A DNA stretch of 64,000 bases. Source: Bacteroidota bacterium. GTDB lineage: Bacteria > Bacteroidota > Bacteroidia > AKYH767-A > JAHEYN01. Shown piece by piece: positions 7,788 through 61,708 of this stretch. The translations under genes and the position numbers were made by a program. The DNA is taken from positions 1,503 through 65,502 of the forward strand of contig JAHEYN010000011.1 of assembly GCA_023251555.1 (NCBI GenBank), in the 5' to 3' direction. The notes beneath the pieces were generated by a model. That model saw only the letters and a list, made by a program, of their open reading frames with translations, was not told the origin of the DNA and searched no databases. The stretch's first letter is position 1. Each line of letters starts with the position of its first letter.

Positions 7788-8338
7788 TGTTTCTGTTGTT
7801 GTTTTAATAAATTAAAATTATAACCAATACCTATGTCAGCATATTCAGCTATTCCCCCCGAATCATTAATTCCTCCAAATTGACCACCTATTCCTACACG
7901 TGCATGAAAATTTATTCTATTCCTCGTCATAATGCCAATTGTTGGAAATATATAACTAACATCTTCATAGAGTTTCGGGGTATTTCTGTAGCGATACAAG
8001 TAAATGATACTGAAGACAATTGGTATTTTAGTAAAATGTACATTTATGTCTAAGTTATAATATTGAAGCTGATCCAAAACTCCCCCATAATCCGAATTAT
8101 TATCTACTGCAAAAGATAATTCCGCAGATATATTTTTATTAAATTGATACCTCGTACCCATTGAAAATGCAAGCTGCGTAAGCCCCACAAAAATGTTATA
8201 CCTATACAATGGAGGATCTAACCAATTTTCTTTTTTTGCATTCGAACTTTTACTATAATCAATCACACCTGTATTTTGAGCATAGCTATACACCATAGTA
8301 TAAATAAGAAATGTGATAATTAAAATTATTTTTAACAT
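7784..8338 (-). CDS. Small predicted outer-membrane beta-barrel protein, a distant member of the island-2 barrel family
   Basis: I prefer the internal ATG, which gives the signal peptide MLKIILIITFLIYTMVYSYAQ. It has alternating-hydrophobic strands, and FSMGTRYQFNKNISAELS resembles FTFGYERIINKNISINLL of ORF 54786-55517. Its stop overlaps the start of the PLC-like gene by 4 nt. Confidence 0.5.
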   Translation of the reverse strand: MLKIILIITFLIYTMVYSYAQNTGVIDYSKSSNAKKENWLDPPLYRYNIFVGLTQLAFSMGTRYQFNKNISAELSFAVDNNSDYGGVLDQLQYYNLDINVHFTKIPIVFSIIYLYRYRNTPKLYEDVSYIFPTIGIMTRNRINFHARVGIGGQFGGINDSGGIAEYADIGIGYNFNLLKQQQKQ

Positions 8339-8460
8339 TATATTTTTTACCGATACAGAGTCGGGCGGCTGTGCCATTACCACAAATGGAATGAATAATA
8401 ATAAACAAGAACACTTTGAAATGCTTTTAGACAATATCATGATAAACATTACAATATTTT

Positions 8461-9696
8461 TTATTTTCCTTGAAGTTCCGTTACTTCTTTTTTAAGCATT
8501 TCCATTTCTACTTTCTGTTTCTGAATAAGTTTAGCCTGTTCTTCAACCAATTTTTGCAAGTCAATAATATCTAATGTGTTTTCTTCTATATTTTGCACAA
8601 TGCCTTTCATCGTTTCACTTGTTTTAATTCCGGAAGTTTCTATTTCCTTTGCAGATGCAATAAATGGCAGGTGATGATTATTGTTTAAATAAAGGAGTTT
8701 TTCCTTCCAATGCATACGATTATAATTTTTTTCAAAAACAAAATCAGACCAATTAGAAGCGTCAATTATTATTTCTTTGGATTTTATGGTGCCGTAAACA
8801 GCTAATTTAATTCCGCTTTTTGGTGTAGTTCCTATAGCCATATTCCCATTTTGCTCTATTGTAACAGCGTCTGGAGCGTTGAACACACCTATTCTGACCC
8901 CATCACCAAAAGTGCTGCTTATATAATTATAAGTATCTCCCAAATATAAATAAGATTGTTGTCCATTTGCCATAAAGTTTTGCGGTCCTTTTATTAAAAT
9001 ATTTCCATAATTAACCTGAAATTTTTCATCTGTTGAAGTAGGGGTGCCACCAATTAAAACTTTTCCAAAATATTGGTTAAATATTGTGTTGCCTGTGTAA
9101 CCTATGGGAAAAGGATCAGGAGGTAGTTGATTCTGAATGTTCAAATCAAAATTATTAGAAGGGTTAGGGAACGATGCTTTAGCACTACTCACATACATTG
9201 AATTTCTGTGTCCGTCAATAACTATAGAGCTGTCACCCAAATGAATCAAACTATCTCCTGGAAGAGCGGTGATTCTGCTTACTCTTATTTTAGCTACTTG
9301 CAAACTATCAAAAGTAGTTTTTCCTGAAACATGCAGGCAAGCGGTAGAAATGCAACTGGTGAAAAGATTGCCTGTTACAGTAAGGTCGCTGTCAACAGTG
9401 GCAAATCCCCTGAGATGAGTATTTCCCTGAACATCCAAAGGGACAAGAGGGGAGATTAATCCTATACCTAAATGACCGCCTACAGTGAGGTTGCTGTCTA
9501 TAACAGCACTTCCCTGAAGATTTAACTTACCTAATATCTGCAAAGCATAAGCAGGATTACTCAGACCGATGCCTACCGAACGCATGGTGTATACTTTGTT
9601 ATTTCCATTAGCTTGCCATAAGCTTTGTCCGTAGCTTGATATGTTTAGTAAAAGCATTGTTCCTGATGCTAAAGAGAGCACAATTAGTCTTTTCAT
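8461..9696 (-). CDS. Secreted tail-fibre/beta-helix-like protein with a C-terminal coiled coil
   Basis: Signal peptide. It has repeated DSNLTVGG / DSDLTVTGN units, and the C-terminus reads NWSDFVFEKNYNRMHWKEKLLYLNNNHHLPFIASAKEIE followed by heptad-rich LQKLVEEQAKLIQKQKVEMEMLKKEV. Confidence 0.5.
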   Translation of the reverse strand: MKRLIVLSLASGTMLLLNISSYGQSLWQANGNNKVYTMRSVGIGLSNPAYALQILGKLNLQGSAVIDSNLTVGGHLGIGLISPLVPLDVQGNTHLRGFATVDSDLTVTGNLFTSCISTACLHVSGKTTFDSLQVAKIRVSRITALPGDSLIHLGDSSIVIDGHRNSMYVSSAKASFPNPSNNFDLNIQNQLPPDPFPIGYTGNTIFNQYFGKVLIGGTPTSTDEKFQVNYGNILIKGPQNFMANGQQSYLYLGDTYNYISSTFGDGVRIGVFNAPDAVTIEQNGNMAIGTTPKSGIKLAVYGTIKSKEIIIDASNWSDFVFEKNYNRMHWKEKLLYLNNNHHLPFIASAKEIETSGIKTSETMKGIVQNIEENTLDIIDLQKLVEEQAKLIQKQKVEMEMLKKEVTELQGK

Positions 9697-46194: not shown

Positions 46195-47163
46195 ATGAAT
46201 ACCACAAATACTTCTGACGTACAGGCTGTTGAACAGCTTGCCGTTTCAGGCAACAGGCTGAAGGGCGAGATTGCGAAAGTTATCGTAGGCCAGGATGAGG
46301 TTGTCATGGATGTGCTGATATCTGTGTTCAGCCGCGGGCATTGCCTGCTGGTTGGTGTTCCCGGGCTTGCAAAAACGCTCCTTGTAAATACAATTGCACA
46401 GGTGCTCGGCCTTAGCTACAACCGCATTCAATTTACACCCGACCTGATGCCGTCAGATATTACCGGTACCGAAATACTTGATGAAACAAGGCAGTTCCGC
46501 TTTATAAAAGGGCCTCTCTTTGCCAACATTATTCTTGCTGACGAAATTAACAGGACTCCTCCTAAAACACAGTCAGCACTCCTTGAGGCTATGCAGGAAT
46601 ATGCAGTTACTGCTTCCGGAAAACGTTACCCGCTGGAGAAACCTTTTTTCGTGCTTGCCACACAGAACCCCATAGAGCAGGAGGGAACCTATCCTCTTCC
46701 TGAAGCTCAGCTCGACAGGTTTATGTTCAATGTACTCCTTGACTATCCGTCTTTTGAAGAAGAGGTTGAAGTTGTAAAAAATACAACCTCCGGAAGAGAA
46801 CCGGTACCCGGAAAAATTCTTGAGGCAGGGCAGATAATTGCTTTCCAGGAGCTTGTGAGGCGTGTACCTGTGGCCGACAACGTGATGGAATATGCAGTCA
46901 GGCTTGCAGGTTCTACCCGTCCGCATTCAGGACTTGCCACGGAAACTGTCAATAAATATGTTTCATGGGGTGCAGGTCCGCGTGCTTCCCAGTATCTCAC
47001 GGTTGGCGCCAAATGTCATGCAGCACTGAAAGGAAAATATTCTCCGGATATTGAAGATGTGCAATATGTCGCGCCCGGGATACTCCGTCACCGCATAGTG
47101 AGGAATTATAAAGCTGAAGCTGAAGGCGTTTCCGTTGAACAGATTATAAAGAATCTTCTCTAA
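46195..47163 (+). CDS. moxR: MoxR-family AAA+ ATPase
   Basis: Walker A GVPGLAKT, Walker B ILADEINR, and ATQNPIEQEGTYPLPEAQLDRF. Confidence 0.9.
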   Translation: MNTTNTSDVQAVEQLAVSGNRLKGEIAKVIVGQDEVVMDVLISVFSRGHCLLVGVPGLAKTLLVNTIAQVLGLSYNRIQFTPDLMPSDITGTEILDETRQFRFIKGPLFANIILADEINRTPPKTQSALLEAMQEYAVTASGKRYPLEKPFFVLATQNPIEQEGTYPLPEAQLDRFMFNVLLDYPSFEEEVEVVKNTTSGREPVPGKILEAGQIIAFQELVRRVPVADNVMEYAVRLAGSTRPHSGLATETVNKYVSWGAGPRASQYLTVGAKCHAALKGKYSPDIEDVQYVAPGILRHRIVRNYKAEAEGVSVEQIIKNLL

Positions 47164-47806
47164 ACTTCCCTGAGGCCTCAAGGCTTTTAAGCGTATTATT
47201 CCCTTTGTTAAATAAGAGGTCAACGATGCTCAGGTTGGGAATGAACCCGCTGCTGCCCCCGAACACCTGCCGGTAAGGAACAGGAGAGAAAAAAATATTT
47301 TCTTTCGGATTTTCTTTTTTGGGGTGCATTCCCTCCCTCCAGTCCGCTGTGGTCTCATCGTATGAAGCTACATAAGAATCCGTAAACGTTATTTCAGCGG
47401 GGATACCTGAAAACTTCAGGATAAGAAAAAGCAAATCAGTATTAAAGTCAAGGAGAAAATCATATTTTTTCCGGTAGTGTATCGCGAAATCATCTTCATA
47501 ATATTCGAAAAAAGGAGATGACCTGTAGGCGGCCTCCAGGGATTTCCAGTGAATTTTCTGCCATTGAGAATCATTTGCAATTCTTAGATCTTTTATCGGC
47601 TGTTTTTGTTTTCTTCCATGCTTTACCGGAATAACGAGGGGAAGAACCCTGTTGGGAGATGCGATATAGCACCGGTTACGGTACGTCTGTTTCCGGAAAT
47701 GCTCATGCTTCTCAATAAGAATTTTTTTGTGCTGAATCCACTTGCAGAAATATTCGACGGGCGGGAGATAAAAGGACGGAAGCAAAGCAGTGCCGGCCGG
47801 TTCCAT
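47144..47806 (-). CDS. WbqC-family protein
   Basis: LLPSFYLPPVEYFCKW...YRNRCYI is typical of WbqC. It sits downstream of lepB, as in many Bacteroidota. Confidence 0.75.
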   Translation of the reverse strand: MEPAGTALLPSFYLPPVEYFCKWIQHKKILIEKHEHFRKQTYRNRCYIASPNRVLPLVIPVKHGRKQKQPIKDLRIANDSQWQKIHWKSLEAAYRSSPFFEYYEDDFAIHYRKKYDFLLDFNTDLLFLILKFSGIPAEITFTDSYVASYDETTADWREGMHPKKENPKENIFFSPVPYRQVFGGSSGFIPNLSIVDLLFNKGNNTLKSLEASGKFREDSL

Positions 47807-47824
47807 TTACGGCAGTATAATAGC

Positions 47825-49069
47825 TTAATGGATAAACCGGAACAAGCGGTTCCACCTGATTTTGTTCAGGAGGTTTGCGTTACCATCCCACGACATCCAT
47901 ATAAAGACTGCTTTTCCGACAATATGATCTTCCGGGACAAAGCCCCAGTAGCGGGAATCAGCAGAGTTATGCCTGTTGTCGCCCATCATCCAGTAATAGT
48001 TCATTTTAAAAGTATAGGACGTTGATTCCTTCCCATTGATGAAAATCTTCCCGTCTTTTTCTTCTAAGCTGTTGTGTTCGTATGTGTTGATAGCCCTCCG
48101 GTAAATGGAGATGTTGCTGCTGTCAAGGGGCATGTTCATCCCTGCCCGGGGAATCACAACAGGTCCGTAATTATCAAGGTTCCACCTGTTTTTAGGATCC
48201 TGGGGAAAAAGGTTGTTGTCGTAAAAGTCTGAAGGGCGGCACATGAGCTGCACCTCGCTGACGTTATTGAAGGACTTCATTTTTTCAGCATTCTCCTTCG
48301 TAAGAAAAAAGCCGAACTGTCCGGGCACTCCGGCGGCTCCTCCTTCGGTGATACCCATACCCTGAAGTATCACAGGGTTCAGGCTGCTGCCGTCGGTTTT
48401 AACTCCATAGAAGAATTCGGATTTTTCAGGTGTAGGCTGTGTCTTGCCATTGATATATACCTGTGTGTTTCTTATAATCAGCGTGTCGCCCGGGATCCCT
48501 ATACAGCGCTTGATGTAATTTTCCTGTTTATCCACCGGGCGGAAATCTTCCATGGGATAGTTGAAAACAACCACGTCCCTGTTCTTGATTTTGTCAAAGC
48601 CGGGCAGGCGGAAATAGGGGAGCTTAATCCACTCAAGGTAGGACTTCGTGTCCTTGGTAAGCGGAAGGGTGTGGTGTGCAAAAGGAAATGCGAGGGGTGT
48701 AATAGGAGTGCGCGGGCCGTAATTGACCTTGCTGACAAAAAGAAAATCTCCCACGAGAAGTGATTTTTCCATGGAAGATGTGGGTATTGTGAAAGCCTCT
48801 ATGATGAAAGTCCGGATGATGGTGGCAGCCACTACGGCAAAGACAATGGCATCAACCCACTCTCTGTTCTTTGACTTCTTTTTTGAGTTGTCAACAGTGA
48901 GGTAATAAACAACGATCAGTGTTTGCCCTATGAGGAAAAGGGATGCGGTAGGGATGATTCCTCCGCCGGCCGGAACAAGCATCATAAGGAAAAAGATAAT
49001 GTTCATCCCGGAAAGGATAAAAAACCATGTCTTTTGCCGTTTGTTCAGTTTGCCAAGAAGTTTTTTCAT
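47825..49069 (-). CDS. lepB: Signal peptidase I
   Basis: S26 motifs IPTSSMEKSLLVGD (catalytic Ser), KRCIGIPGD (Lys) and GDNRHNSADSRYWGFVP. Confidence 0.9.
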   Translation of the reverse strand: MKKLLGKLNKRQKTWFFILSGMNIIFFLMMLVPAGGGIIPTASLFLIGQTLIVVYYLTVDNSKKKSKNREWVDAIVFAVVAATIIRTFIIEAFTIPTSSMEKSLLVGDFLFVSKVNYGPRTPITPLAFPFAHHTLPLTKDTKSYLEWIKLPYFRLPGFDKIKNRDVVVFNYPMEDFRPVDKQENYIKRCIGIPGDTLIIRNTQVYINGKTQPTPEKSEFFYGVKTDGSSLNPVILQGMGITEGGAAGVPGQFGFFLTKENAEKMKSFNNVSEVQLMCRPSDFYDNNLFPQDPKNRWNLDNYGPVVIPRAGMNMPLDSSNISIYRRAINTYEHNSLEEKDGKIFINGKESTSYTFKMNYYWMMGDNRHNSADSRYWGFVPEDHIVGKAVFIWMSWDGNANLLNKIRWNRLFRFIH

Positions 49070-49400: not shown

Positions 49401-51695
49401 CTAATGTTCCCTCTCCTGATATTTTATAATCACCAGCTTACCTTCTGTTATTCTCTGGTTACCCGCAACCACCTGGTAAAGATAAACACCATTTTCAATG
49501 TTTGATTCTGAAATTGTTAATATATTCTTTCCTTCTTTCATGGGATAACTCAACACTTTCCTTCCGGTAATATCATAGACTTCAAATGTTGCTTTCTGAT
49601 TATCAGCAAGCGAATAATCCACCTGCATTGCACCGTTATTCGGGTTCGGATAAACTTTTACATTGTTTTCCCTTGCAGTTGTTTCTTGCGGTGCTTGCTT
49701 CTGTTTCGGATTCCCTAATCTCAAGTCATTTGCAGTTACAGTGCATTGAGCGTATTTGACAGTGGAAATATCATATTCATTTTGAGTAATTCCCCCTCCA
49801 AAACTTGCCCCCGATACATATACATTTCCACTGGGACTAATAGCGATCGAGGTAGATTCATCATATCCATTCAATGAATCATTATATTGCATTACCCACT
49901 CTTGACCACCCATGTTGTTATATTTGATAGTAGTGTAATCAAAATTATCACCGTTTACCTGGCTTGCACCTGTAACGTAAATATTTCCTGAAGTATCTAT
50001 GCCTATGGCATTTGCCCAGTCTTCTCCATTGGAAGCCCCATTGAATCTGACCACCCATCGCTCTGTTCCTGTTCCATCATAGCTGATAGTAATAATATCC
50101 TGATTCTGCACCCCTTCACTATATCCTGTCACATAGATATTACCCGTTTTGTCTGCCACTAATGAAGTTGCCCAGTCTGTTGAATTTCCGGTTCCGTTAT
50201 AGGTATTAACCCATTGCAGAATTCCCTGAGCATTATATTTTATGGTGATATAATCATAGCTGCCCGCTGAACTCCACGCTGAACCGCATACAAAAATATC
50301 CATTGATCCGTCAATAATCATATCTGTTGCAAGAAACTGACTATGGTTATTATCCTTGTATCTTAGTGTCCTTACTGTATTTCCCAGAGAGTCGTACTTG
50401 ACAGTCACAATTTCACTATTAGCCGAAGCTCCATTATAATCACTTATTCCGGTTACATAGATATATCCCAGTGTATCCGTTGCAATGGAAATACCCGTAT
50501 CGTCACGATGTAAGGAGTCATCATAATTTGCCGCCCATTGCAATACGCCTTGTGAATTATACTTCAGGGTAGTAAGATCATAATTGAACTGAGGAGTACC
50601 GTTAGCAGAAAAACCGGTAACATATACATTTCCTTTGTTATCAGTAATAACAGACCTCCCTCCATTGATATTTCCATTTCCAGGATACCCTCTCTGGTAA
50701 TTTACAACCCAATTTATATTTCCTGAGGAATCGAGTTTTATGGTTGTAAGGTCCATTTCCAGCATTGAAGGAGTATAGATTACGGATGCATTCCCTGTTA
50801 CATACACATTGCCTTGTGTGTCAACGATAATTGCATAAGGAATATCCATAAAATGTCCGGGACCATCATATTGCCGGGACCATTTTAAGATACCGTCACG
50901 GTTATATTTTAATATTATATAATCAGTAAATCCGCTTACCGCATCTCGTATATAACCGGCTACATATACATTTCCATATATGTCAATGGCTGTTACGCCT
51001 GCATCTAATGAATCTGTGTTGTTAAATTTTTGAGCCCATTGTTGGGTTACATTGACAAGTGTCAGAGAAAGAGGACTTTGATTTATCCAGTTGTCAATGG
51101 TTTGTGTAGTGGTATCCTCCAAAGCAAAACCACTTTTAGTTGCAAAACCAAATCGGGCATTAGTATCCAATGCTAAAACCTGATTGTCCATAAATTTAAA
51201 CGAACCATCCGAAGCAGTCACAGCCGGACTTATACTATTTAGTATATTCATATTCACATCTACTATCACAATAGTATCGCCTTCAACCGGGCTGCCTCCG
51301 CATTGAAAATTATCGTAAAGGAATCCACGTATTCTTGAACAGGAATCAACTGTAACAGTAACACATCTTGTCACTCTGCATCCTTTACCGCAAGTTACGG
51401 TTACACAGTAACTGCCGGAAGTTTTCACCTTTAAACATGAGGAAAACGCAATGACTGTTGTATCCGTATCTTTTTTCCAATTGAACGTATACGGTGCTGT
51501 ACAACCAGAACAAACATCTGCACACAAGGTTACCGAATCTCCCAAACAAAAATTCAAAGGTCCGCCCGGACTTATCTGAACAATTGGATTTGCTGTCGCA
51601 TTAATATTAAAGAAAATAACAGCAAAAAATAATTCCGAAAATCCTCTACAAACATTTTGAATATTATTTAAAACAAAGTGTTGAATTGTTTTCAT
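49401..51695 (-). CDS. SBBP/beta-propeller repeat protein with a T9SS type A C-terminal sorting domain
   Basis: More than 8 repeats of G..YVTG.s......DY.T.KY...G...W. The C-terminus reads VKVYPNPNNGAMQVDY...FEVYDITGRKV...GVYLYQVVAGNQRITEGKLVIIK. Confidence 0.8.
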   Translation of the reverse strand: MKTIQHFVLNNIQNVCRGFSELFFAVIFFNINATANPIVQISPGGPLNFCLGDSVTLCADVCSGCTAPYTFNWKKDTDTTVIAFSSCLKVKTSGSYCVTVTCGKGCRVTRCVTVTVDSCSRIRGFLYDNFQCGGSPVEGDTIVIVDVNMNILNSISPAVTASDGSFKFMDNQVLALDTNARFGFATKSGFALEDTTTQTIDNWINQSPLSLTLVNVTQQWAQKFNNTDSLDAGVTAIDIYGNVYVAGYIRDAVSGFTDYIILKYNRDGILKWSRQYDGPGHFMDIPYAIIVDTQGNVYVTGNASVIYTPSMLEMDLTTIKLDSSGNINWVVNYQRGYPGNGNINGGRSVITDNKGNVYVTGFSANGTPQFNYDLTTLKYNSQGVLQWAANYDDSLHRDDTGISIATDTLGYIYVTGISDYNGASANSEIVTVKYDSLGNTVRTLRYKDNNHSQFLATDMIIDGSMDIFVCGSAWSSAGSYDYITIKYNAQGILQWVNTYNGTGNSTDWATSLVADKTGNIYVTGYSEGVQNQDIITISYDGTGTERWVVRFNGASNGEDWANAIGIDTSGNIYVTGASQVNGDNFDYTTIKYNNMGGQEWVMQYNDSLNGYDESTSIAISPSGNVYVSGASFGGGITQNEYDISTVKYAQCTVTANDLRLGNPKQKQAPQETTARENNVKVYPNPNNGAMQVDYSLADNQKATFEVYDITGRKVLSYPMKEGKNILTISESNIENGVYLYQVVAGNQRITEGKLVIIKYQEREH

Positions 51696-52530: not shown

Positions 52531-53844
52531 TTAAAAGGCATATCCAATGTTTAATCCCGAAATCAGCCAATACTTATAAAATTTTTCTCCTCTATTTGAT
52601 ACACTGAATTTATTATTCAATCCATTATCATCAGCCAATGGGCTCTTATACATTCGTGTTAGGGTATTATCATTATAGATCGGACCAATATAGAAATCTA
52701 TTAAAAAATTGTTTTTTATTAATGACTGATAACCTATTGCAAACCCAATACTTTTCTGATGAACTTTTTCTTCATAATCATATTTAATATTACTTGGAAT
52801 AGTGTCTATATCTGTGAAAACATAATCAATATAACGATAACGATAAATCGGACTCAAATAAATTCCTATAGGAAATGGCTTGTGTGAAAGGGTTAAATAC
52901 CAACGCAAAGAAGGGGAAACATTATATCCTTTTTTAAATCCGCTACTTTCACTCGTTATACTGTCAGGATGGCTACCACTAAATTCTTGGTTAATAAATT
53001 TATTCATTAGAAAAAAGTAGAAATAACCAGCAGATAATTGAATTGAAAATCTATTTCCTAAAAACTGCTCATAGCTTAATCTCATATTTCCAATAGGAAA
53101 TCCAATCCCGGTTTTTAATAAATATTTTTTTTCTGAAGGTAAGATTGTTTTACAAACATCTCTCCAGTTAAAAGCATATCCGATAGTTATGCCCGCTCTA
53201 AAAGCAGTTGATGCTTTGTTTGTCAATACAGCATTACCATATTTCTGAATTAACAACGATTCAGTTGCATGTGAATCTATAAATTTTCTGTCTATATTAT
53301 TTTCTCTAAAAAAAACACCACCATATAAATCAAAAGTAAAACCATGTTCCATAATTATTTGATAACCTAAAGTCATTCCGCCACCTATTTCTGTTGAGGT
53401 GGCTATGTTAGAACAATCAATGGAATCTTGTACATAGGCATAATTTAAAGCACTAACCTTGAAATCCTGTTTAACTTTCTTATACTTGAAAAATGGAGCT
53501 AAGTATAATCCTGACGGTATTCTATTCTTATGTGGAAAAGGATAATATCGCAACTCTGATACAAAAGCATATCCATTTACTCTTCTATAAGAAATAATAT
53601 TGGGAAAAAATTCTCCGCCCCTCCAAGAAAAATCATAATAAGGCTCAGTACGCACGTACTTTGCATTATAAGTTAAAGAAAAATGTTCATTAATAACTCT
53701 CTCATAAGTTAACCCCGGTCCATTTGACTTAAAGACATCTCTTATAATAATCGAAGAATCAGTTTGAGCAAATATTTTTTTATACCCCAAAGAGAAGAAA
53801 ATTAATATTGAAATTTTAAATATGAAAGCTATTTTTAGGTGCAT
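52531..53844 (-). CDS. Tandem fusion of two barrel-family domains
   Basis: It contains two complete units. The first ends ...RAGITIGYAF at mid-protein and the second ends ...GLNIGYAF at the C-terminus. Each begins with an xTYER/SYEQ motif. Confidence 0.6.
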   Translation of the reverse strand: MHLKIAFIFKISILIFFSLGYKKIFAQTDSSIIIRDVFKSNGPGLTYERVINEHFSLTYNAKYVRTEPYYDFSWRGGEFFPNIISYRRVNGYAFVSELRYYPFPHKNRIPSGLYLAPFFKYKKVKQDFKVSALNYAYVQDSIDCSNIATSTEIGGGMTLGYQIIMEHGFTFDLYGGVFFRENNIDRKFIDSHATESLLIQKYGNAVLTNKASTAFRAGITIGYAFNWRDVCKTILPSEKKYLLKTGIGFPIGNMRLSYEQFLGNRFSIQLSAGYFYFFLMNKFINQEFSGSHPDSITSESSGFKKGYNVSPSLRWYLTLSHKPFPIGIYLSPIYRYRYIDYVFTDIDTIPSNIKYDYEEKVHQKSIGFAIGYQSLIKNNFLIDFYIGPIYNDNTLTRMYKSPLADDNGLNNKFSVSNRGEKFYKYWLISGLNIGYAF

Positions 53845-53851
53845 GATAAAA

Positions 53852-54208
53852 TTATTTCAAAAGATATTTATACACATAATCTTCTTCTCCCATTGTATCA
53901 AAATCCTTCAGGCGGTGATAGGTTCTTTTCCATACCCCAAAAGTATATGCTTCTTTCTTTTTAAGTGGCCAAAAGCGAAAGGTTATAGTAATAGGAATTC
54001 CTTCAATATCTTCTTTCATTAAATTTTTCATCTTATTATTTACAAGTCCTTTTGCATAAACATCCGTATTTGTAATTACCCTTTCTTCTTCCATATTGTC
54101 TTCAAAAGAGCCATTTTGATCAGATGTTGGCTTGTAATTACTTGGAAAAAGTGGGTCGTTATACGGTCCTGTAGCTGTGTGGAATAAATCATTTCTCCAA
54201 CTAAGCAT
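53852..54208 (-). CDS. Standalone homologue of the last ~115 aa of the 955-aa protein (intact ORF, possibly a gene remnant)
   Basis: EEERVITNTDVYAKGLVNNKMKNLMKEDIEGIPITITFRFWPLKKKEAYTFGVWKRTYHRLKDFDTMGEEDYVYKYLLK aligns colinearly to the C-terminus of ORF 55527-58394. Confidence 0.55.
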   Translation of the reverse strand: MLSWRNDLFHTATGPYNDPLFPSNYKPTSDQNGSFEDNMEEERVITNTDVYAKGLVNNKMKNLMKEDIEGIPITITFRFWPLKKKEAYTFGVWKRTYHRLKDFDTMGEEDYVYKYLLK

Positions 54209-54238
54209 GTCTTTAAAATTTTCGGAGAAATATTTTTA

Positions 54239-54682
54239 TTAGCAGTGATGTATATCTCCTAATGCCGGTCCGTATATTTTAAGCAACCAAATAAAGAATA
54301 TTAAAGCACTATTGGATAAACAACCCCAACCTGCATATTGAGTTTCTTTTTTGTCATTAGTTACAATAGCCGCAATAATTAATCCAGGCACACTCAAACA
54401 TGCTCCCCAAAAAAATGATGGAATGCCTAATGGAGGTGTATTTACAGAATCTAAATTCTGAAAATTATTTGTATCTATATTTATCAGAAGTTCTTTGTCA
54501 TTTTTCTGTATTTGAGATAGAGCGACATCTCCGTATTGATTCACAAAATTTTCCAATTGATTTAATTTTTCAATTTTTTTTAGAATTACATTTTCATCCA
54601 ACTGAAATAACTGAGCATTCCCAGCCATTAATAAATGGCAACTAAAAACGCCAGTAAAAAAAACAAATAATAAATTTTTCAT
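54239..54682 (-). CDS. Small membrane protein (signal peptide plus two C-terminal TM helices)
   Basis: MKNLLFVFFTGVFSCHLLMA..., with hydrophobic segments IPSFFWGACLSVPGLIIAAIV and LSNSALIFFIWLL. No recognisable family. Confidence 0.5.
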   Translation of the reverse strand: MKNLLFVFFTGVFSCHLLMAGNAQLFQLDENVILKKIEKLNQLENFVNQYGDVALSQIQKNDKELLINIDTNNFQNLDSVNTPPLGIPSFFWGACLSVPGLIIAAIVTNDKKETQYAGWGCLSNSALIFFIWLLKIYGPALGDIHHC

Positions 54683-54785
54683 TTTAATATATATTTATAA
54701 ACATAATCTTCTTCGCCCATAGTGTCAAAACCCTTGAGGCGGTGATAAGTTCTTTTCCATATCCAGTAGGTGTATGTTTTTTTTC
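54679..54785 (-). pseudogene. Start-less relic of the 955-aa gene's 3' end
   Basis: The minus strand reads KKTYTYWIWKRTYHRLKGFDTMGEEDYVYKYILK then TGA. It is wedged directly after the stop of barrel gene 54786-55517 in another frame, and no start codon precedes it. Confidence 0.7.
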
Positions 54786-55517
54786 TTAAAATGCATATCC
54801 AATTGTCATACCTGCTCTGATTCCAAATTGCTTTACGTTTTGCATAATATATTCACTTCTATATTCAAATTTTCCTATTAAAAGTGTATCGTTGGCGTCA
54901 CTGTTAAGATATGTTCTATTAATAACAATTTGTTTAAGTTGAGGTCCAATAAACCACTCAAAAGCAAATCCTTTTTTACTTATAGATTGAAATCCGAAAG
55001 TAAGCCCTGTGCTAAGTTCTGATGAAATGCCATTATAAGAACAATTGACGGTATCTCCAGACGGAGGACCTAAAAAGTTATTTTTTTGATATAAAATTTT
55101 ATCTTCAAAATCGTGTTTAAGATTTTTATATCTAATATGTGAAGCAATGTAATATCCGCGAGGAAGTTTGTTCTTATTACTTTTAAAGTAAAAGCGAACT
55201 TCGGGAATAATGACATAACCTTGTAAATAATCAGTAAAACCAACCCCTGCATGCAGGATTAGTATTGACTGAGCAAATCTTGATGGCGCCCAATGTGTAA
55301 AGTTGATATACCCTGCTAATAAATTTATTGAAATATTTTTATTGATTATTCTTTCATATCCAAATGTAAAATTTCCTTCTGCTAATCCTAATATATTGGA
55401 TTTTATGATATTTTGTTTTGGACTTAATGAATCTGTTTGTGCTTCCTGAGCATTTATATGCAGACACATGAAACAAATAATTAATATCAAATTTATTTTT
55501 ATAAAAAATGTTTTCAT
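54786..55517 (-). CDS. Predicted outer-membrane beta-barrel protein (island family, single domain)
   Basis: The signal peptide MKTFFIKINLILIICFMCLHINAQEAQTDS is nearly identical to that of ORF 51742-52464. Terminal GMTIGYAF. Confidence 0.6.
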   Translation of the reverse strand: MKTFFIKINLILIICFMCLHINAQEAQTDSLSPKQNIIKSNILGLAEGNFTFGYERIINKNISINLLAGYINFTHWAPSRFAQSILILHAGVGFTDYLQGYVIIPEVRFYFKSNKNKLPRGYYIASHIRYKNLKHDFEDKILYQKNNFLGPPSGDTVNCSYNGISSELSTGLTFGFQSISKKGFAFEWFIGPQLKQIVINRTYLNSDANDTLLIGKFEYRSEYIMQNVKQFGIRAGMTIGYAF

Positions 55518-55526
55518 CTTGACTAT

Positions 55527-58394
55527 TTATTTTAGAATGTATTTATACACATAATCCTCTTCTCCCATTGTATCAAAATCTTTCAAGCGATGATAAGTGC
55601 GCTTCCATATCCAGTAAGTATATGTTTTCTTCTTTTTAAAGGGCCATAGGCGAAGAGTTACAGTTATAGGTTTTCCCAGAATACCTTCTCGCATTATATT
55701 TTTCATGTCATTGCTTACAAGCCCTTTAGTATAAACATCTTTATTTGTTACTACCCGTTCCTCTTCTGAATTAGCGGCTGAGTTTGGAAAAGTTGGCAAG
55801 TAGTTAAAAGGAGAATTATAGTAAGATATTCCAGACTCTTGAAACTTTTCCGAACTTCCTAAAGGGCCATAAGAATGGTCTGAAGAACTTTGAATAAAAG
55901 AATAATGATTAGGATAACGATTCATAGAGTTGATGAAGTAATTATTAAGAAGAATGGGCTGCACCATGCCTGTCGGCGATAGATAGGGCGTACAGGCTGC
56001 CGACACACTAAAAGGAAATTCCTCCTCTGATTTTTGATCTATATAGTAACCAATAGCTCTAAATGGAGAAATTCCCATATCAAAAACATTGCCGTGAGGA
56101 AATTGAGGCATGAAATAAGGAACAGGGAAATAACCACTTGGCCATAAAAGGGAGGGGTTAAAATTTCCACATTGGCAATCCATAGTAAGGACTCCATCAT
56201 CAAAGCCATGATGAAATATATGTTTTACTAAAAGAGAGAAGTTGTCAGGGTGCCCGCCTGCAACAGTTAAAACAGGGACAGGTGTAAACTGACCAAATTT
56301 GTTCATCCAAAATAGCTGGGATACTTCCGGTACAAGGTCTCTCAACACACTGGTTTGAACAGCATATGCAGCACCTGCTGCATTATATACTGATGAATTG
56401 CTGATGTGCAGAACAGTGTTTAGCAGTGCAGCCAATCCTGCAAGTGCAGGGGTGGTAAACACAGCTACTACTCCCGTTGCCATACTGCTTCCTGAAAAAG
56501 CTCCATGAAGAGAAATGTGTGCTCTTGCTTTATCGGCTATGTATCCAATAGAACCAATTTTACTTTTGAGCGAGTCAACTGTTTTTGTTTTATTGGCAAG
56601 GGACATTGCCACATCCACGAGTAACGCTCCCGTAGAATGAGTGATGATAACATATCCATCTTTCCCAAAGTCACTTGTGCCTCTGGGGTCATTTGGGTCT
56701 AATAATTCCACATCTGTTCCATTGATCATTGCTTCGCTGATTTGAGTTAATACTGCATGTACACCGTAATCGAGAGTTTGGGTGGATGCCCATGAGACTA
56801 TAAGCAATCTATTCTTGTATCCTTTGTTTCTTAAAAAATGTTGAATATGGTCTGACCAGTATTTATCTGCTCTTTTTTTCCAATACCCGTAATAATTGTT
56901 ACCTTGATAATTTCTATAAAACTCTTTTATGTCTTTTGGCCATCTTGTATTAGCCGGATCTTTAGTATCTAAAATTTTATCCCTTATTGGAGTGGGATCT
57001 AAACCTAGAGAAAAAACAATATCTCTTCCTCCAAAAGGGCTGTTGGGGTCAGCTACAAAATTATTTGCGGTATCACAGTAGCATAAAGTATCCAGCTTAC
57101 CTAAGTTAAGAAAAGCCAAAGGAGAATCTAATACTGCATTGTAAATGCTGTCGCCTATAAATTTTAAAAGATTAGTCAGAGAATCAGCAGTTATATTAAT
57201 GCCAAGATTGCTTAAGCTGTCATCAAAATTTATATTCAACGCTTCGGGCGGTACGGCTCCTCCGATAGTAGCACAATGAAAAAGGTCAGGACAATTTGCA
57301 TAAAAAGTATCTATATCGGTATTACAAAACCCGCCATACAAATCATGAACACTGCCCATAAACATGCTCACTGAATCGGTTATAAGAGGGGTATTGGGGT
57401 CAAGGTATGCTGCAAGATTGGGAGGAATGACAGGGTTGCCAAGAGAGTCAATAGCAATGGAATCACATACAATGGAATCAAGAGTTGCATGCATGCAAAT
57501 ACCGTCAATATAGCCGGCCGAGTTCAGCGTGCTGTCATTATTAAAAATATTAATGGCAACTTTATCAAAGTTCTTATTGGCTATCCATGTTTGAAACTGA
57601 TAGCTTGTCCAGTCTTTAGAATTTATTTTTCCTGTAAATCCTATGATTGCAATATTAGAATCAGGTGCAGGGTGATTATTCCCGGTGGGTAATGAACCAT
57701 TAAAAGCAATTGCTCTGATTTTAAGATACGGCAAACTGCTCGCAGCAGAATCTAATTTTATACAACAACTTAAAATATATTTATTTCCCTGAACAATTTT
57801 GTTAGATGAAGCAAGTGTTTGTTTAACTGCATCTCCGCTTACTTTATTTCCCTGCAATTTAATATACCCGTTATCATCGCATCCTTCAGTATTAAATACG
57901 GAAGGGGTGCCATACCCTGCACCCCAATTTGAAACGCTTCCTCCGCTGGCCATAGAACCGGGAACATTCGAAACAAGAAATGTTCCGTTCTGTAACAAAT
58001 TACTATCACACACATTTACAGCACAGCTCGGTAATAAGAAACAAGATTGCAAATAACAGGTGCCTTTACCGTCAGGAAAAACAACTTTTATATTAAAGCA
58101 GGAGATGTTATTTCCGGCTGATTTGGTAGTGAAAGTTCCCGTTATAGCTTTTGTTCCTTTTTTTACAAGGGTTGTTGAAATACCTGTTATTGTTCCATTT
58201 GTCAAAGTAATGGAATCTATCTTTCCAACAACATTCATTGCATTATTTATAAAAAGAGAGTACGAATATTTGTGGTTGCCTGAAGGATTCGTTTTACAAA
58301 TAATGGTATCAATTGTTGCCGTAATGTTACAAGTCTGAGATTTTACATTATAGCCCAATAATAAAACAAAAAGAATCGGGAATATTTTTTTCAT
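55527..58394 (-). CDS. Large secreted protein with a predicted alpha/beta-hydrolase (lipase-like) domain and a family-specific C-terminal domain
   Basis: Signal peptide MKKIFPILFVLLLGYNVKSQ. The nucleophile-elbow-like segment is VIITHSTGALLV, followed in Ser-Asp-His order by HGFDDGVLTMD and SSSDHSYG. There is no T9SS tail. Confidence 0.55.
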   Translation of the reverse strand: MKKIFPILFVLLLGYNVKSQTCNITATIDTIICKTNPSGNHKYSYSLFINNAMNVVGKIDSITLTNGTITGISTTLVKKGTKAITGTFTTKSAGNNISCFNIKVVFPDGKGTCYLQSCFLLPSCAVNVCDSNLLQNGTFLVSNVPGSMASGGSVSNWGAGYGTPSVFNTEGCDDNGYIKLQGNKVSGDAVKQTLASSNKIVQGNKYILSCCIKLDSAASSLPYLKIRAIAFNGSLPTGNNHPAPDSNIAIIGFTGKINSKDWTSYQFQTWIANKNFDKVAINIFNNDSTLNSAGYIDGICMHATLDSIVCDSIAIDSLGNPVIPPNLAAYLDPNTPLITDSVSMFMGSVHDLYGGFCNTDIDTFYANCPDLFHCATIGGAVPPEALNINFDDSLSNLGINITADSLTNLLKFIGDSIYNAVLDSPLAFLNLGKLDTLCYCDTANNFVADPNSPFGGRDIVFSLGLDPTPIRDKILDTKDPANTRWPKDIKEFYRNYQGNNYYGYWKKRADKYWSDHIQHFLRNKGYKNRLLIVSWASTQTLDYGVHAVLTQISEAMINGTDVELLDPNDPRGTSDFGKDGYVIITHSTGALLVDVAMSLANKTKTVDSLKSKIGSIGYIADKARAHISLHGAFSGSSMATGVVAVFTTPALAGLAALLNTVLHISNSSVYNAAGAAYAVQTSVLRDLVPEVSQLFWMNKFGQFTPVPVLTVAGGHPDNFSLLVKHIFHHGFDDGVLTMDCQCGNFNPSLLWPSGYFPVPYFMPQFPHGNVFDMGISPFRAIGYYIDQKSEEEFPFSVSAACTPYLSPTGMVQPILLNNYFINSMNRYPNHYSFIQSSSDHSYGPLGSSEKFQESGISYYNSPFNYLPTFPNSAANSEEERVVTNKDVYTKGLVSNDMKNIMREGILGKPITVTLRLWPFKKKKTYTYWIWKRTYHRLKDFDTMGEEDYVYKYILK

Positions 58395-58624: not shown

Positions 58625-59359
58625 TTAAATCCTGATCATGTCCTGCATTCCAAAGGTGCCTTTTTTCCCCTGAATCCATTCGGCGGCAAGGACTGCGCCG
58701 AGAGCAAATCCTTTCCTGCTGAAGGCAGCGTGGGTTAATTCAATGCTATCAACGCCTGATACGTATTTTATTGTATGGATTCCGGGCACATTCTGAACCC
58801 GGAAGGAAGTAATCGGCAGCTCGCCGGTGTGTTCGCCACCGGTGGGTTGGGCATCCCTCAAATTTATCCAGTTCTTCTTTCTTTTTACACGGGAGAGAAT
58901 ATCTTCTGCAAGAGTGATGGCTGTTCCGCTGGGTGCGTCAAGTTTCTGGGTGTGGTGCGTCTCGGTGATGGAGATATCGTAATCCGGGCGGGTATTCATG
59001 ATTTCTGCAAGTCTCCTGTTGATTTCAAAAAGGATATTTACCCCTATGCTGTAGTTGGATGAGTAGAAGAAAGCCTGGTTTTTCTCAAGGCATATTTTTT
59101 TTATCTCATCGATCTTCTCAATCCATCCTGTTGTTCCGCAAACCACCGGTACACCTGCCCGGAAGCAATTAAGGATGTTGGAGGGAGCGGCGGCAGGAGT
59201 TGAGAATTCAATCGCCACATCTGCTTTTGAGAGCTCAGGTATAGTGAATCCTTCTGCGTTGTTAATGTCTATGCACAGGATAATCTCATGCTTTCTTTCA
59301 AGGGCGGTTTTTTCAATCTCTTTCCCCATTTTTCCGTACCCGATGAGTGCTATTTTCAT
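58625..59359 (-). CDS. dapB: 4-hydroxy-tetrahydrodipicolinate reductase
   Basis: From the internal ATG: MKIALIGYGKMGKEIE ... ETHHTQKLDAPSGTA (the DapB signature). Confidence 0.9.
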   Translation of the reverse strand: MKIALIGYGKMGKEIEKTALERKHEIILCIDINNAEGFTIPELSKADVAIEFSTPAAAPSNILNCFRAGVPVVCGTTGWIEKIDEIKKICLEKNQAFFYSSNYSIGVNILFEINRRLAEIMNTRPDYDISITETHHTQKLDAPSGTAITLAEDILSRVKRKKNWINLRDAQPTGGEHTGELPITSFRVQNVPGIHTIKYVSGVDSIELTHAAFSRKGFALGAVLAAEWIQGKKGTFGMQDMIRI

Positions 59360-59366
59360 GTGATGG

Positions 59367-59996
59367 TTATTTTTTTGTAAAGTGAAGGCTGAGGGAAGGG
59401 GAGAGGCCGGATCCGTTTGGAAAACACAGGCCGGGTATAATCCTGATGGAAAGGTTGTCGCTGACATCAAACCTGAACAGGTGCGCATCAACTGCGGCGT
59501 CAATGATGTTCATAATATACAGTCCTGTGGCAAGTATCACGGAGAGGTCCCTGTCGCGGTGATAAGCATTACTCAGCGTAAGGAGGTCGTCCGTGGAATA
59601 TTTTGACATGTACGGATAGTTTTTAGGATCGGATATGCCTGCAGCATAAGCATCCGTATACTTCCTGTATTTTGAATGGTTATAATTGATGAGGTAAGCG
59701 GTCCCTGCAAACCCTGCGTACAAAACCGGCAGCTTCCAGTATTTCCGGTTGTAGATCTGTCCCGCCCCGGGTATTACGGCAGAGAGTATCGTTGCCTTTC
59801 GCGGAGAATGCATATGGGGTGGCGGGGTTTTCGGTGAATGGGAGAATGCATTCACAGGAATTATTGCCAGGAACAGAAGGGTGAAGAAAAGAGACTTACG
59901 CGCCTTCACAGAAAACAGGATCTCTTTAACTGCGGATAAATGCGGCACAGGGCGGGTTCCGATGCGAATCAGGCTGAGAGAGAGGGATGTAGTCAC
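59367..59996 (-). CDS. DUF5683-like membrane protein
   Basis: SAVIPGAGQIYNRKYWKLPVLYAGF is characteristic. It sits between parB and dapB. The start is uncertain. Confidence 0.7.
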   Translation of the reverse strand: MTTSLSLSLIRIGTRPVPHLSAVKEILFSVKARKSLFFTLLFLAIIPVNAFSHSPKTPPPHMHSPRKATILSAVIPGAGQIYNRKYWKLPVLYAGFAGTAYLINYNHSKYRKYTDAYAAGISDPKNYPYMSKYSTDDLLTLSNAYHRDRDLSVILATGLYIMNIIDAAVDAHLFRFDVSDNLSIRIIPGLCFPNGSGLSPSLSLHFTKK

Positions 59997-60012
59997 TTTA
60001 AAGGCGGGACAA

Positions 60013-60903
60013 TCAGCGGTCCAGGGTACTCAAAATTCTTGCCAGTTCTGCAGGTGAAGAATACCTGATAACAATTTTGCCTTGCCCGCCGGCTTTCTGG
60101 ACAATCTCTGCTTCTGCCCCCAATGCTTTGTTAATTCTGTCTTCCGCTTCTTTCACGGAGGCTGTTTTCCCGGCCTGCAGTTCTTTCCCTTGCCTGGAGC
60201 GGGAAGAGGAACTGCGTGCAAGTTCTTCAACATCTCTTACGGAGAGCGCATCCAGGATGATTTTCCTGTAAAGAGCAAGCTGCTCGGCAGGATTCTCTAT
60301 GCCAATGATACTTCTTGCATGACTCATAGAGAGTTTGTTATCCCTTATTCCCGCCTGTATTTCGGGAGGTAGTTTAAGGAGGCGGAGGTAGTTGGTCACG
60401 GTGGACCTGTTCTTCCCGACTTTTTTGCTCAGTTCTTCCTGTGTGAGTGAGCATTCCTCAATAAGCCGCTGGTAGCTGATGGCTATCTCTATGGCATTGA
60501 GATTTTCCCGCTGGATATTTTCCACCAGCGCCATTTCCAGCATGGCCTGGTCATTGGCGATCCTGATATAGGCGGGGATGTTTTCCAGTCCGGCAATCAT
60601 TGCTGCCCTGAAGCGTCTTTCTCCGGAAATGATTTGGTATTTGTCATAGCCTAATTTCCTGACGGTGATTGGCTGAATAATCCCCTGTTCCCTGAGCGAT
60701 GCAGCAAGTTCGAGGAGTGCATCTTCTTCAAAAGTGCTTCTTGGCTGGAAGGGATTGGTTTCAATCTGGTTCAGCAGGATATTGGCAACGGATCCGGCAA
60801 TGGCAGGGGGGGCCGACAGACCGGCCCTGGAGGTAATGTCAGTGCCGGCATCTTCAAGGAGGGCGGCAAGGCCTTTTCCCAGTGCGTTTCGCTTAGTGCT
60901 CAT
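60013..60903 (-). CDS. parB: Chromosome partitioning protein ParB
   Basis: Has LGKGLAALL, NPFQPR, IISGERRFRAA and an HTH segment. Confidence 0.92.
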   Translation of the reverse strand: MSTKRNALGKGLAALLEDAGTDITSRAGLSAPPAIAGSVANILLNQIETNPFQPRSTFEEDALLELAASLREQGIIQPITVRKLGYDKYQIISGERRFRAAMIAGLENIPAYIRIANDQAMLEMALVENIQRENLNAIEIAISYQRLIEECSLTQEELSKKVGKNRSTVTNYLRLLKLPPEIQAGIRDNKLSMSHARSIIGIENPAEQLALYRKIILDALSVRDVEELARSSSSRSRQGKELQAGKTASVKEAEDRINKALGAEAEIVQKAGGQGKIVIRYSSPAELARILSTLDR

Positions 60904-61708
60904 CGGGTATAGGAATAGTTCTTTCCGAGACAGGAATCCTGGTCATGTTGTTTTTCTGCAATATCTCCCTTGCAAGATTAAGATAATTGACGGATCCTTT
61001 ACAGTTGGCATCAAACATCACAATGGTTTTTCCGAAGCTGGGAGCCTCTCCAAGCCTCGTATTCCTTTGTATGATAGTGTCGAAAACCATTTGCTGGAAA
61101 TGTGTTTTCACCTCTTCAACAACCTGGTTGGACAGCCTCAGCCGCACGTCATACATGGTAAGAAGTATACCTTCTATCTCCAGGTCCGGGTTATGCCTGG
61201 ATTGCACAATTTTGATAGTGTTCAGCAGCTTGCCCAGTCCTTCGAGGGCGAAATATTCACACTGCACAGGTATGATGACAGAGTCAGAAGCAGTGAGGGC
61301 ATTCAGCGTTATAAGGCCGAGGGACGGAGAGCAGTCAATGATGATAAAGTCATAATCGTTTTTCACTTTGGCAAGCGAAGACTTCATCATTTTTTCCCTG
61401 CCTGGCAGGTTTACGAGTTCTATTTCAGCGCCCACAAGGTCAATGTGTGCGGGGATAAGGTGCAGGTTGGGAGTATCAGTGGTAAGTATGATGTCCTGTG
61501 ATTTGGCTTCATTTACGAGGCACTCATAGATGCTGGTCTTTATGTTCTTCGGATCAAAGCCTGTTCCCGATGTGGCATTAGCCTGGGGATCGGCGTCAAT
61601 CAGCAGTGTTTTGTATTCAAGTACAGCGAGGCTGGCAGCGAGATTCATCGCTGTGGTGGTTTTTCCCACGCCTCCTTTCTGGTTTGCTATGCAGATTATT
61701 TTACCCAT
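60893..61708 (-). CDS. parA: Chromosome partitioning ATPase ParA/Soj
   Basis: Deviant Walker A NQKGGVGKTTTAMNLA. Confidence 0.92.
   Translation of the reverse strand: MGKIICIANQKGGVGKTTTAMNLAASLAVLEYKTLLIDADPQANATSGTGFDPKNIKTSIYECLVNEAKSQDIILTTDTPNLHLIPAHIDLVGAEIELVNLPGREKMMKSSLAKVKNDYDFIIIDCSPSLGLITLNALTASDSVIIPVQCEYFALEGLGKLLNTIKIVQSRHNPDLEIEGILLTMYDVRLRLSNQVVEEVKTHFQQMVFDTIIQRNTRLGEAPSFGKTIVMFDANCKGSVNYLNLAREILQKNNMTRIPVSERTIPIPDEH

Follow-up and report, generated by a model that had tools for sequence, protein, structure and literature searches.

Within a window of 64,000 nucleotides (nt) from a Bacteroidota bacterium (assembly GCA_023251555.1, contig JAHEYN010000011.1; the window is the whole stretch of DNA that was analysed), a gene encoding a secreted lipase-like protein of 955 amino acids (aa), here named L1, is followed on the same strand by two shorter sequences related to its own 3' end, each of them tightly joined to a gene for a putative membrane protein. 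This layout raises the question whether the tail of the enzyme and the gene behind it form a functional unit that was multiplied, as proposed in the initial annotation, or whether the short copies are what is left of larger genes. The second answer is probably the correct one. The two fragments, relic 2 (a copy devoid of a start codon) and relic 3 (an open reading frame, ORF, of 118 aa), would be the 3' ends of once full-length lipase genes, produced as by-products of illegitimate recombination.

Genes of this locus are arranged head to tail on the minus strand in the order L1, barrel A, relic 2, a 147-aa gene, relic 3, the double barrel B-C, barrel D and a 764-aa gene. The fourth barrel gene (barrel D, 240 aa) and the 764-aa gene were absent from the initial annotation. 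The gaps given there proved exact: 9 nt separate L1 from barrel A, 7 nt separate the 118-aa ORF from B-C, and the TGA of relic 2 overlaps the ATG of the 147-aa gene (ATGA). Relic 2 also abuts the stop of barrel A directly. Remaining gaps amounted to 30 nt (147-aa gene to 118-aa ORF), 66 nt (B-C to D) and 46 nt (D to the 764-aa gene).

That the 3' end of L1 occurs three times on this strand was confirmed by a repeat search and by a tail profile, which agreed on the positions. According to the repeat search, 53852-54091 and 55527-55766 are 80% identical over 240 nt and a three-way repeat of 106 nt displays 81% identity; in the whole 64 kb the profile recognised these three positions and no others (E 1e-46, 1e-46 and 1e-15). 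Self-alignment, recommended earlier as a check, placed the repeat far above what chance would produce in AT-rich DNA, and exact matches between copies reach 23 nt at most. The three tails are mutual closest relatives, with 69-97% aa identity among themselves as against at most 45% to any other protein. The repeat had been estimated at ~80 aa: the tail indeed recurs, but protein homology between the 118-aa ORF and L1 reaches over nearly the whole length of the former, from approximately the position of the catalytic histidine to the stop. A word-indexed protein search with the 118-aa ORF retrieved only itself, and a metagenome scan with the same query retrieved no relative.

The downstream copies had been described as decayed, which the pattern of substitutions contradicts. 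Relic 2 encodes KKTYTYWIWKRTYHRLKGFDTMGEEDYVYKYILK followed by a stop, lacks a start codon and begins at a beta-hairpin turn. Over its 34 codons it differs from copy 1 (the tail of L1) at 19 of 102 nt and at only one of 34 aa, 15 of the 19 differences being located at third codon positions (P=6e-5). Copy 1 and the 118-aa ORF, compared over 80 codons, display 52 nt and 21 aa differences (ratio of nonsynonymous to synonymous substitutions per site, dN/dS, 0.16), and dS between tail copies is ~1. In random-substitution trials at the same divergence, ~14 (relic 2) and ~35 (relic 3) aa changes were expected and a stop arose in 73% and 92% of the trials, respectively. When scored with a family profile built without the window's own sequences, relic 2 reached 49.1 bits over 34 aa (live copy, 47.9) and the 118-aa ORF 108.5 bits (live copy, 121.8), so that the relics fit the family about as well as the live gene; residues invariant in the family are kept. 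Because divergence is mainly synonymous and no damage has accumulated, the copies appear to have evolved inside functional genes and to have been truncated recently, each of them diverging to dS ~1 within a working full-length gene before it was cut off. They would represent well-preserved ends of different, once functional genes and not, as first described, copies of the 3' end of L1 itself.

Two further candidates were considered and rejected. Silent cassettes serving variation do not agree with a relic 2 peptide that is almost the same as that of the live gene. A frameshift fusion of barrel A with relic 2 is contradicted by the frame of the relic (-1 relative to the barrel), by the lack of a slippery heptamer and by the requirement that the barrel end at its GYAF motif.

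How the fragments arose can be reconstructed as follows. Two other full-length lipase-like genes, sister alleles or paralogues of the 955-aa gene, would once have existed, and their 5' parts would have been removed by microhomology-mediated illegitimate recombination, which fused lipase coding sequence, at an internal point, to the end of the gene ahead of it. The fragments would be by-products without a role of their own, and the 0-9-nt spacing would be the original gene-pair junction carried along with each of them; tight spacing is no sign that the tail and the downstream gene work together. At the junction between barrel A and relic 2, the sequence GCATTTTAAGAAAAAAAACAT shares A-rich microhomology with the 3' flank of barrel D (GCATTTTAAGAAAAAACAT) and with the interior of the tail (CCCTTTAAAAAGAAGAAAACAT), apparently the signature of an illegitimate join between a barrel 3' flank and lipase coding sequence at the hairpin turn. 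A search of the spacers C-D, D-764 and 147-118 for further remains of the tail gave nothing that stood out from shuffled controls (z -0.7 to 0.1), which is why the resemblance downstream of barrel D is taken as A-rich microhomology only. The data fit the history suggested earlier, in which duplication preceded partial deletion, and equally one in which acquisition preceded partial loss.

As to the route, we favour sequential displacement. DNA from outside, with a diverged lipase allele and a new gene behind it, would have entered by homologous recombination within the lipase gene and, at its far end, by an illegitimate event, and the resident 3' end together with its neighbour would have been pushed downstream, at least twice. 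Displacement would explain why the fragments have retained followers that differ from one another, with the spacing unchanged, and also why aa changes are more numerous in the 118-aa ORF, which lies farther from the live gene, than in relic 2.

Tandem paralogues whose 5' parts were deleted at a later stage could have given rise to the same arrangement. In that case the lipase gene and its downstream gene would have been duplicated in tandem in situ and would have diverged under purifying selection to dS ~1, after which two of the copies recently lost their 5' ~835-920 codons. This second route is possible though unlikely, and whatever probability it has is part of that already granted to the general explanation. 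The dS between barrels A and D (1.09) is similar to that between tails (~1), as a single duplication burst predicts, and both the mutual closeness of the three tails and the failure to find an outside donor are in line with it. However, two or three independent recent deletions would be needed, each ending at most 30 nt from the previous stop. The downstream partners, namely barrel A, the 147-aa protein and barrel B (31% aa), are either unrelated or far apart in sequence, unlike the outcome of a simple unit duplication, and the GC content of the block is distinct from that of the lipase gene. With the nearest full-length homologue only 45% identical and no donor found, the data would suit displacement and paralogue deletion alike.

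Several observations weigh against truncated lipase genes as the origin of the fragments, by either route. Neither relic 2 nor relic 3 could be traced to a full-length version in a donor or sister genome. The 118-aa ORF is open and starts with ATG, as expected of a recent truncation but also of a functional small gene, and stand-alone tail-only ORFs occur in other metagenomes, one of them with a signal peptide. A distant member of the enzyme family, P0085, displays a PagL-type barrel at its C-terminus, a weak hint of ties between enzyme and barrel, and P0159, the close homologue of barrel A, lies 12 nt after another gene. Finally, homology-facilitated recombination at ~80% identity would be inefficient.

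Table 1. Features of the lipase-like locus (positions within the window).
Feature	Position	Strand	Basis
955-aa secreted lipase-like gene (L1)	55527..58394	-	ORF listing
Tail copy 1 (L1 residues 878-955)	55530..55763	-	Repeat search, alignment, AlphaFold2 model
Barrel A, 243 aa, DUF3575	54786..55517	-	Pfam PF12099, AlphaFold2, Foldseek
Barrel A/relic 2 junction	54774..54794	-	Sequence GCATTTTAAGAAAAAAAACAT
Relic 2, start-less; probable last 34 codons and stop of a second lipase-like gene	54679..54785	-	Repeat search
147-aa gene	54239..54682	-	ORF; signal peptide, hydrophobic segments
Relic 3 (118-aa ORF); probable 3' end of a third lipase-like gene	53852..54208	-	ORF, alignment
437-aa double barrel B-C, DUF3575	52531..53844	-	Pfam, alignment
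Barrel D, 240 aa	51742..52464	-	Paralogue of barrel A
764-aa SBBP beta-propeller protein with type IX secretion system (T9SS) type A sorting tail	49401..51695	-	Pfam and NCBIfam matches

The genes between L1 and the 764-aa gene are probably a late addition. In the three closest relatives (lipase 42-45% identical), a homologue of the 764-aa gene is located directly after the lipase gene (~-1 to 35 nt), and the Cys-rich N-terminal 116 aa of the 764-aa protein are 47-52% identical to those downstream genes; in the window the two genes are 3.8 kb apart. Since these relatives display the 764-aa homologue directly after the lipase gene, the block composed of A, relic 2, the 147-aa gene, relic 3, B-C and D appears to be an AT-rich, lineage-specific insertion. 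Its GC content is ~30%, that of the two flanking genes 38-40% and that of the surrounding housekeeping genes, as of the genome, ~46%. The GC profile along the lipase gene revealed no clear recombination breakpoint.

The conserved pair itself (L001 11311-, L002 9261-, L011 ~6234-) is characterised by the shared Cys-rich N-terminus of ~115 aa in the downstream protein, of which the remainder differs (SBBP propeller, NHL, Laminin_G_3). The 9-kb segment lies between parA-parB-DUF5683-dapB and lepB-WbqC. From the lipase gene to the 764-aa gene it is low in GC and interrupts a housekeeping run (47144-49069 and 58625-61708), and the still more AT-rich barrel block is nested inside it. The genes dapB and lepB are usually adjacent in Bacteroidota; assuming this adjacency to be the normal state, the 9-kb segment would presumably be a nested island. 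A second low-GC stretch (~34-35%) was noticed at 5916-9696 of the window, with a T9SS-tailed 623-aa protein and ORFs of 221 and 411 aa without Pfam match. A scan of the locus for sigma-70 promoters and terminators yielded background levels, the model not covering Bacteroidota promoters, and a PHROGs search gave no meaningful match.

The identity of the enzyme bears on what its tail can be expected to do. L1 starts with a signal-peptide-like N-terminus (MKKIFPILFVLLLGYNVKSQ), followed by a small N-terminal beta domain, a beta-sandwich (~130-320) resembling carbohydrate-binding modules (CBM) 4/16/22, an alpha/beta-hydrolase domain and a C-terminal subdomain. The AlphaFold2 model forms a single body (predicted local distance difference test, pLDDT, 86; predicted template modelling score, pTM, 0.84), in which the tail adopts a long beta-hairpin (901-916 / 921-937) and a terminal helix. 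Foldseek matched residues ~130-320 to CBM4/16/22 modules and residues ~450-845 to bacterial family I lipases (E 1e-5 to 1e-4, probability 1.0). Candidate catalytic residues are the HG463-464 oxyanion motif, S587, D733 and H840. In an alignment of 50 homologous sequences, S587, D733, G464 and G589 were invariant and H840, H463 and H586 at least 90% conserved; tail residues E878, W930 and R932 were as invariant as the catalytic ones. Judged by the model, L1 is predicted to possess an alpha/beta-hydrolase lipase fold, with Ser-Asp-His order, nucleophile elbow and HG motif, and the epithet lipase-like is supported at the level of predicted fold and motif. The HG oxyanion motif, the S-H-S-T-G elbow and the Ser-Asp-His order are shared with family I lipases such as Geobacillus T1/L1, Acinetobacter LipA and Bacillus BlEst2. 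Unlike these, L1 displays an additional CBM-like domain and a conserved beta-hairpin tail, and sequence-level comparison gave no match to Pfam, NCBIfam or a PDB chain (the last searched with the family profile). Neither the 955-aa protein nor the 118-aa ORF matched a Pfam or NCBIfam family, in agreement with the earlier remark that the C-terminal domain is not a recognised one.

A word-indexed search with the 955-aa protein retrieved seven relatives, all with the tail and one from Ilumatobacter (Actinomycetota), the nearest full-length homologue displaying the 45% identity mentioned above. An exhaustive search with the tail profile extended the family to 199 clusters at 50% identity, distributed among Bacteroidota (especially Saprospiraceae), Ignavibacteria, Actinomycetota, Acidobacteriota and Binatia. 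N-termini are variable, and members display a CBM4/16/22-like domain, the Ser-Asp-His lipase-fold domain and the invariant beta-hairpin tail. The catalytic domain (~400 aa) was found directly upstream of the tail in 146 of the 157 sequences examined, the 11 exceptions all being at most 233 aa long, and among full-length proteins the tail was never found on other passenger domains. In five proteins (P0054, P0077, P0085, P0095 and P0140) the tail is internal and followed by Ig, Laminin_G_3 or, once, a PagL-type barrel. It is also present in Pyrinomonadaceae, Binatia and Ilumatobacter, the last an example of phyla without a Bacteroidota-type outer membrane or T9SS. Because it always stands behind the same catalytic domain and is sometimes internal, the tail appears to be a fixed, constant structural subdomain of one uncharacterised family of secreted lipase-fold proteins, and on these sequence grounds it would be neither a sorting signal, nor a partner-binding module, nor a mobile module. 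The PagL-type barrel (lipid A deacylase family) of P0085 (1626 aa) occupies residues 1527-1612, after Ig and He_PIG domains, and is the only link of the enzyme family to a barrel outside the window.

Could the 118-aa ORF nevertheless be a functional stand-alone protein, a regulator or decoy perhaps translationally coupled to the double barrel 7 nt farther on? It is intact and starts with ATG, and 118 stop-free codons would arise by chance with a frequency of ~2e-4 at this base composition; tail-only ORFs also exist elsewhere (P0071, with a signal peptide, P0151 and P0029). An open frame is, however, equally expected of a recent truncation. The ORF scores 13 bits under the live copy and has no signal peptide, although the domain from which it derives is extracytoplasmic. 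A stand-alone function is therefore regarded as improbable. As for the other short tail-only ORFs, P0071 (L033 503-1204) has a dockerin-like end besides its signal peptide, P0151 (L034 270-644) lies between unrelated genes of a high-GC organism, and P0029 (L008 218-574) is the third; the contigs that carry them measure 0.6-1.2 kb, and all three may themselves be relics or fragments.

The barrels, which had not been recognised as a named family, belong to a named but uncharacterised one, DUF3575 (PF12099; cut-off 21.1 bits). Barrel A scored 29.8 and B-C 21.9 bits, and D remained just below the cut-off with 18.4. Barrel A displays a signal peptide and a C-terminal GYAF beta-signal, and all barrels of the window end in GYAF. 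Its AlphaFold2 model is 8-stranded (pLDDT 72.8, moderate confidence) and was matched by Foldseek to CarO, TtoA, OmpW and OprF-N, so that a CarO/OmpW-like 8-stranded fold is predicted for these DUF3575 barrels. The 437-aa protein consists of two DUF3575 barrels in frame: B retains GYAF, and C, without signal peptide, starts six residues past it. At the B/C junction, GCTTTTAACTGG (~53170-53185) resembles the usual GCxTTTTAA stop minus one T, and the fusion may be due to a recent frameshift or to a homopolymer sequencing error. Barrel C is a third 5'-truncated gene abutting the end of its predecessor.

Mutual identities among the barrels range from 25 to 52% aa, as compared with ~69-97% among the tails. 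A and D share 52% aa (BLASTP; dS 1.09, dN 0.27). The A-D split thus appears similar in age to the tail copies, and B and C (25-31% aa) would be much older. P0159 (SRR14366772), the sole close homologue of barrel A, is 74% identical overall, the aa identity being 90% in the C-terminal 142 residues and ~54% in the N-terminal 100; the first 40 codons of barrel A are nearest to barrel D (dS 0.47, as against 1.1-2.1 elsewhere). This pattern suggests gene conversion or recombination within barrels, and since barrel A is mosaic relative to P0159, the locus would recombine between lineages. The partners of the tail had been summed up as predicted outer-membrane barrels; this stands for barrel A and B-C but not for the 147-aa protein, which is not a barrel. 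The latter displays a signal peptide, one strong hydrophobic segment (~85-109) and then a second, weaker one, and matched no Pfam or NCBIfam family.

A tail that functioned with a barrel should be accompanied by one elsewhere. Five loci were collected by exact look-up, 24 from species-representative genomes (Saprospiraceae, other Bacteroidota, Ignavibacteria, Chitinophagales, Ilumatobacter, Pyrinomonadaceae and Binatia) and 27 from JGI metagenomes, ~45 of them remaining distinct after removal of duplicates. Six-frame scans of these ~45 loci with hidden Markov models (HMMs) detected a single tail at each of them, and neither relics nor relatives of the window's four barrel domains came up at any. 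The gene downstream of the lipase gene was variable and often encoded a large T9SS-tailed protein, and none of the downstream genes ended in an outer-membrane beta-signal. The HMM search for a conserved tail-barrel pairing, proposed at the outset, hence revealed no such linkage, which is precisely the outcome that had been named beforehand as speaking against a cognate unit.

According to that proposal, the ~80-aa tail and the gene following it would cooperate in export, outer-membrane anchoring or neutralisation, spare modules being kept by selection. The 0-9-nt coupling of all three units, the preservation of the relics at the protein level, the fusion of one distant homologue to a PagL-type barrel and the position of the close homologue of barrel A, likewise 12 nt behind another gene, speak in its favour. 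We nevertheless consider it quite improbable, because homologues of the C-terminal domain elsewhere show no linkage to barrels. In full-length proteins the tail is never detached from the catalytic domain and in some it is internal, and its distribution includes Actinomycetota, Acidobacteriota and Binatia. Relic 2 lacks a start codon and is read in another frame than barrel A, for which GYAF must be the end; the 118-aa ORF, lacking a signal peptide, would have no way of reaching a barrel in the envelope. Of the three partners, one is no barrel at all, and the barrels are far more diverged than the tails.

In a variant that combines displacement with cognate partners, each incoming lipase allele would have brought its own envelope partner (a DUF3575 barrel or the 147-aa protein) as anchor, export helper or means of self-protection. 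Such a true displacement array is very improbable, but is retained for consideration because of the PagL fusion of P0085 and the tight operon around P0159. If correct, it would amount to a polymorphic enzyme-partner system in Bacteroidota, with barrels in the role held by immunity proteins in Rhs, contact-dependent inhibition (CDI) and type VI secretion system (T6SS) loci, and displacement-type polymorphic systems would extend to enzyme-barrel pairs. Finally, it is extremely unlikely that strain variants of a single locus were strung in series by a metagenome assembler: the source appears to be a metagenome-assembled contig (the protein occurs on one contig of 329 kb) and the B/C fusion could be a homopolymer error, but exact matches between copies (at most 23 nt) are too short to mislead a modern assembler, the junctions lie outside shared sequence, and the copies are ~20% diverged, each unit having a different downstream gene.

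As noted at the outset, the layout resembles an array of orphan or displaced fragments, being 5'-truncated, downstream on the same strand and still homologous to the parent gene. Displacement of C-termini in Rhs loci is a precedent for displacement arrays, and the route favoured above follows the model put forward for Rhs tips (PMC2935791). As in Rhs and CdiA orphan arrays (PMC2935791, PMC3150448), a full-length gene precedes same-strand, 5'-truncated fragments in which part of the parent is conserved, a different small gene stands tightly behind each fragment, displaced pieces stay conserved, and acquisition plus recombination is the likely origin. In Rhs and CdiA, however, the conserved part precedes a toxin tip that varies, whereas the repeat is here the invariant extreme C-terminus of an enzyme; there is no variable part, relic 2 differing by 1 aa. 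Their follower is a cognate immunity gene, whereas the followers are here outer-membrane barrels and a membrane protein, absent beside homologues. Pfam and NCBIfam searches gave no match to Rhs/YD, CdiA, PAAR or toxin domains, and neither a variable C-terminal toxin after VENN or PxxxxDPxGL nor a conserved cognate immunity gene was found. Without variable tip, toxin or delivery domain and conserved immunity-like partner, the array does not qualify as a polymorphic-toxin locus.

T6SS effector-immunity arrays of V. cholerae were formed by homology-facilitated illegitimate recombination (PMC5361080). The displacement proposed here is of the same kind, with a homologous anchor upstream, an illegitimate join downstream and a resident 3' end shifted back, and repeated events would likewise build an array (PMC5361080). 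L1 differs from T6SS effectors in its Sec signal peptide, and no immunity function is indicated for its followers. Among the neighbouring genes scanned (parA-parB-DUF5683-dapB and lepB-WbqC), none belonged to a T6SS.

Another conceivable model is provided by SprB/SprF of Flavobacterium johnsoniae, where proteins with a T9SS type B C-terminal domain are encoded next to PorP/SprF-family barrel genes. A secreted Bacteroidota protein with a C-terminus of ~100 aa and a barrel gene immediately after it are features in common. The 955-aa protein and the 118-aa ORF did not match TIGR04183/PF18962 or TIGR04131/PF13585, and the barrels of the window displayed no PorP/SprF match in Pfam or NCBIfam. Unlike T9SS sorting domains, which are found on diverse passengers in T9SS lineages, the tail has a single passenger type, is sometimes internal and occurs outside T9SS phyla. 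The array thus behaves as a displaced-fragment array but lacks the defining features of polymorphic toxins and of T9SS sorting-domain/PorP pairs.

The array is real, and it is a well-explained, fairly ordinary product of genome rearrangement. The gene remnants serve as a record of the history of the locus, synonymous divergence pointing to genes that were working until recently and microhomology to the way in which one of them was probably cut, and they call for caution, as tight spacing inherited along with a fragment should not be read as function. A widespread family of secreted lipase-fold proteins (~200 clusters) for which no family model exists is possibly more useful than the array itself, and the predicted CarO/OmpW-like 8-stranded fold of DUF3575 barrels is a second potentially useful side result.

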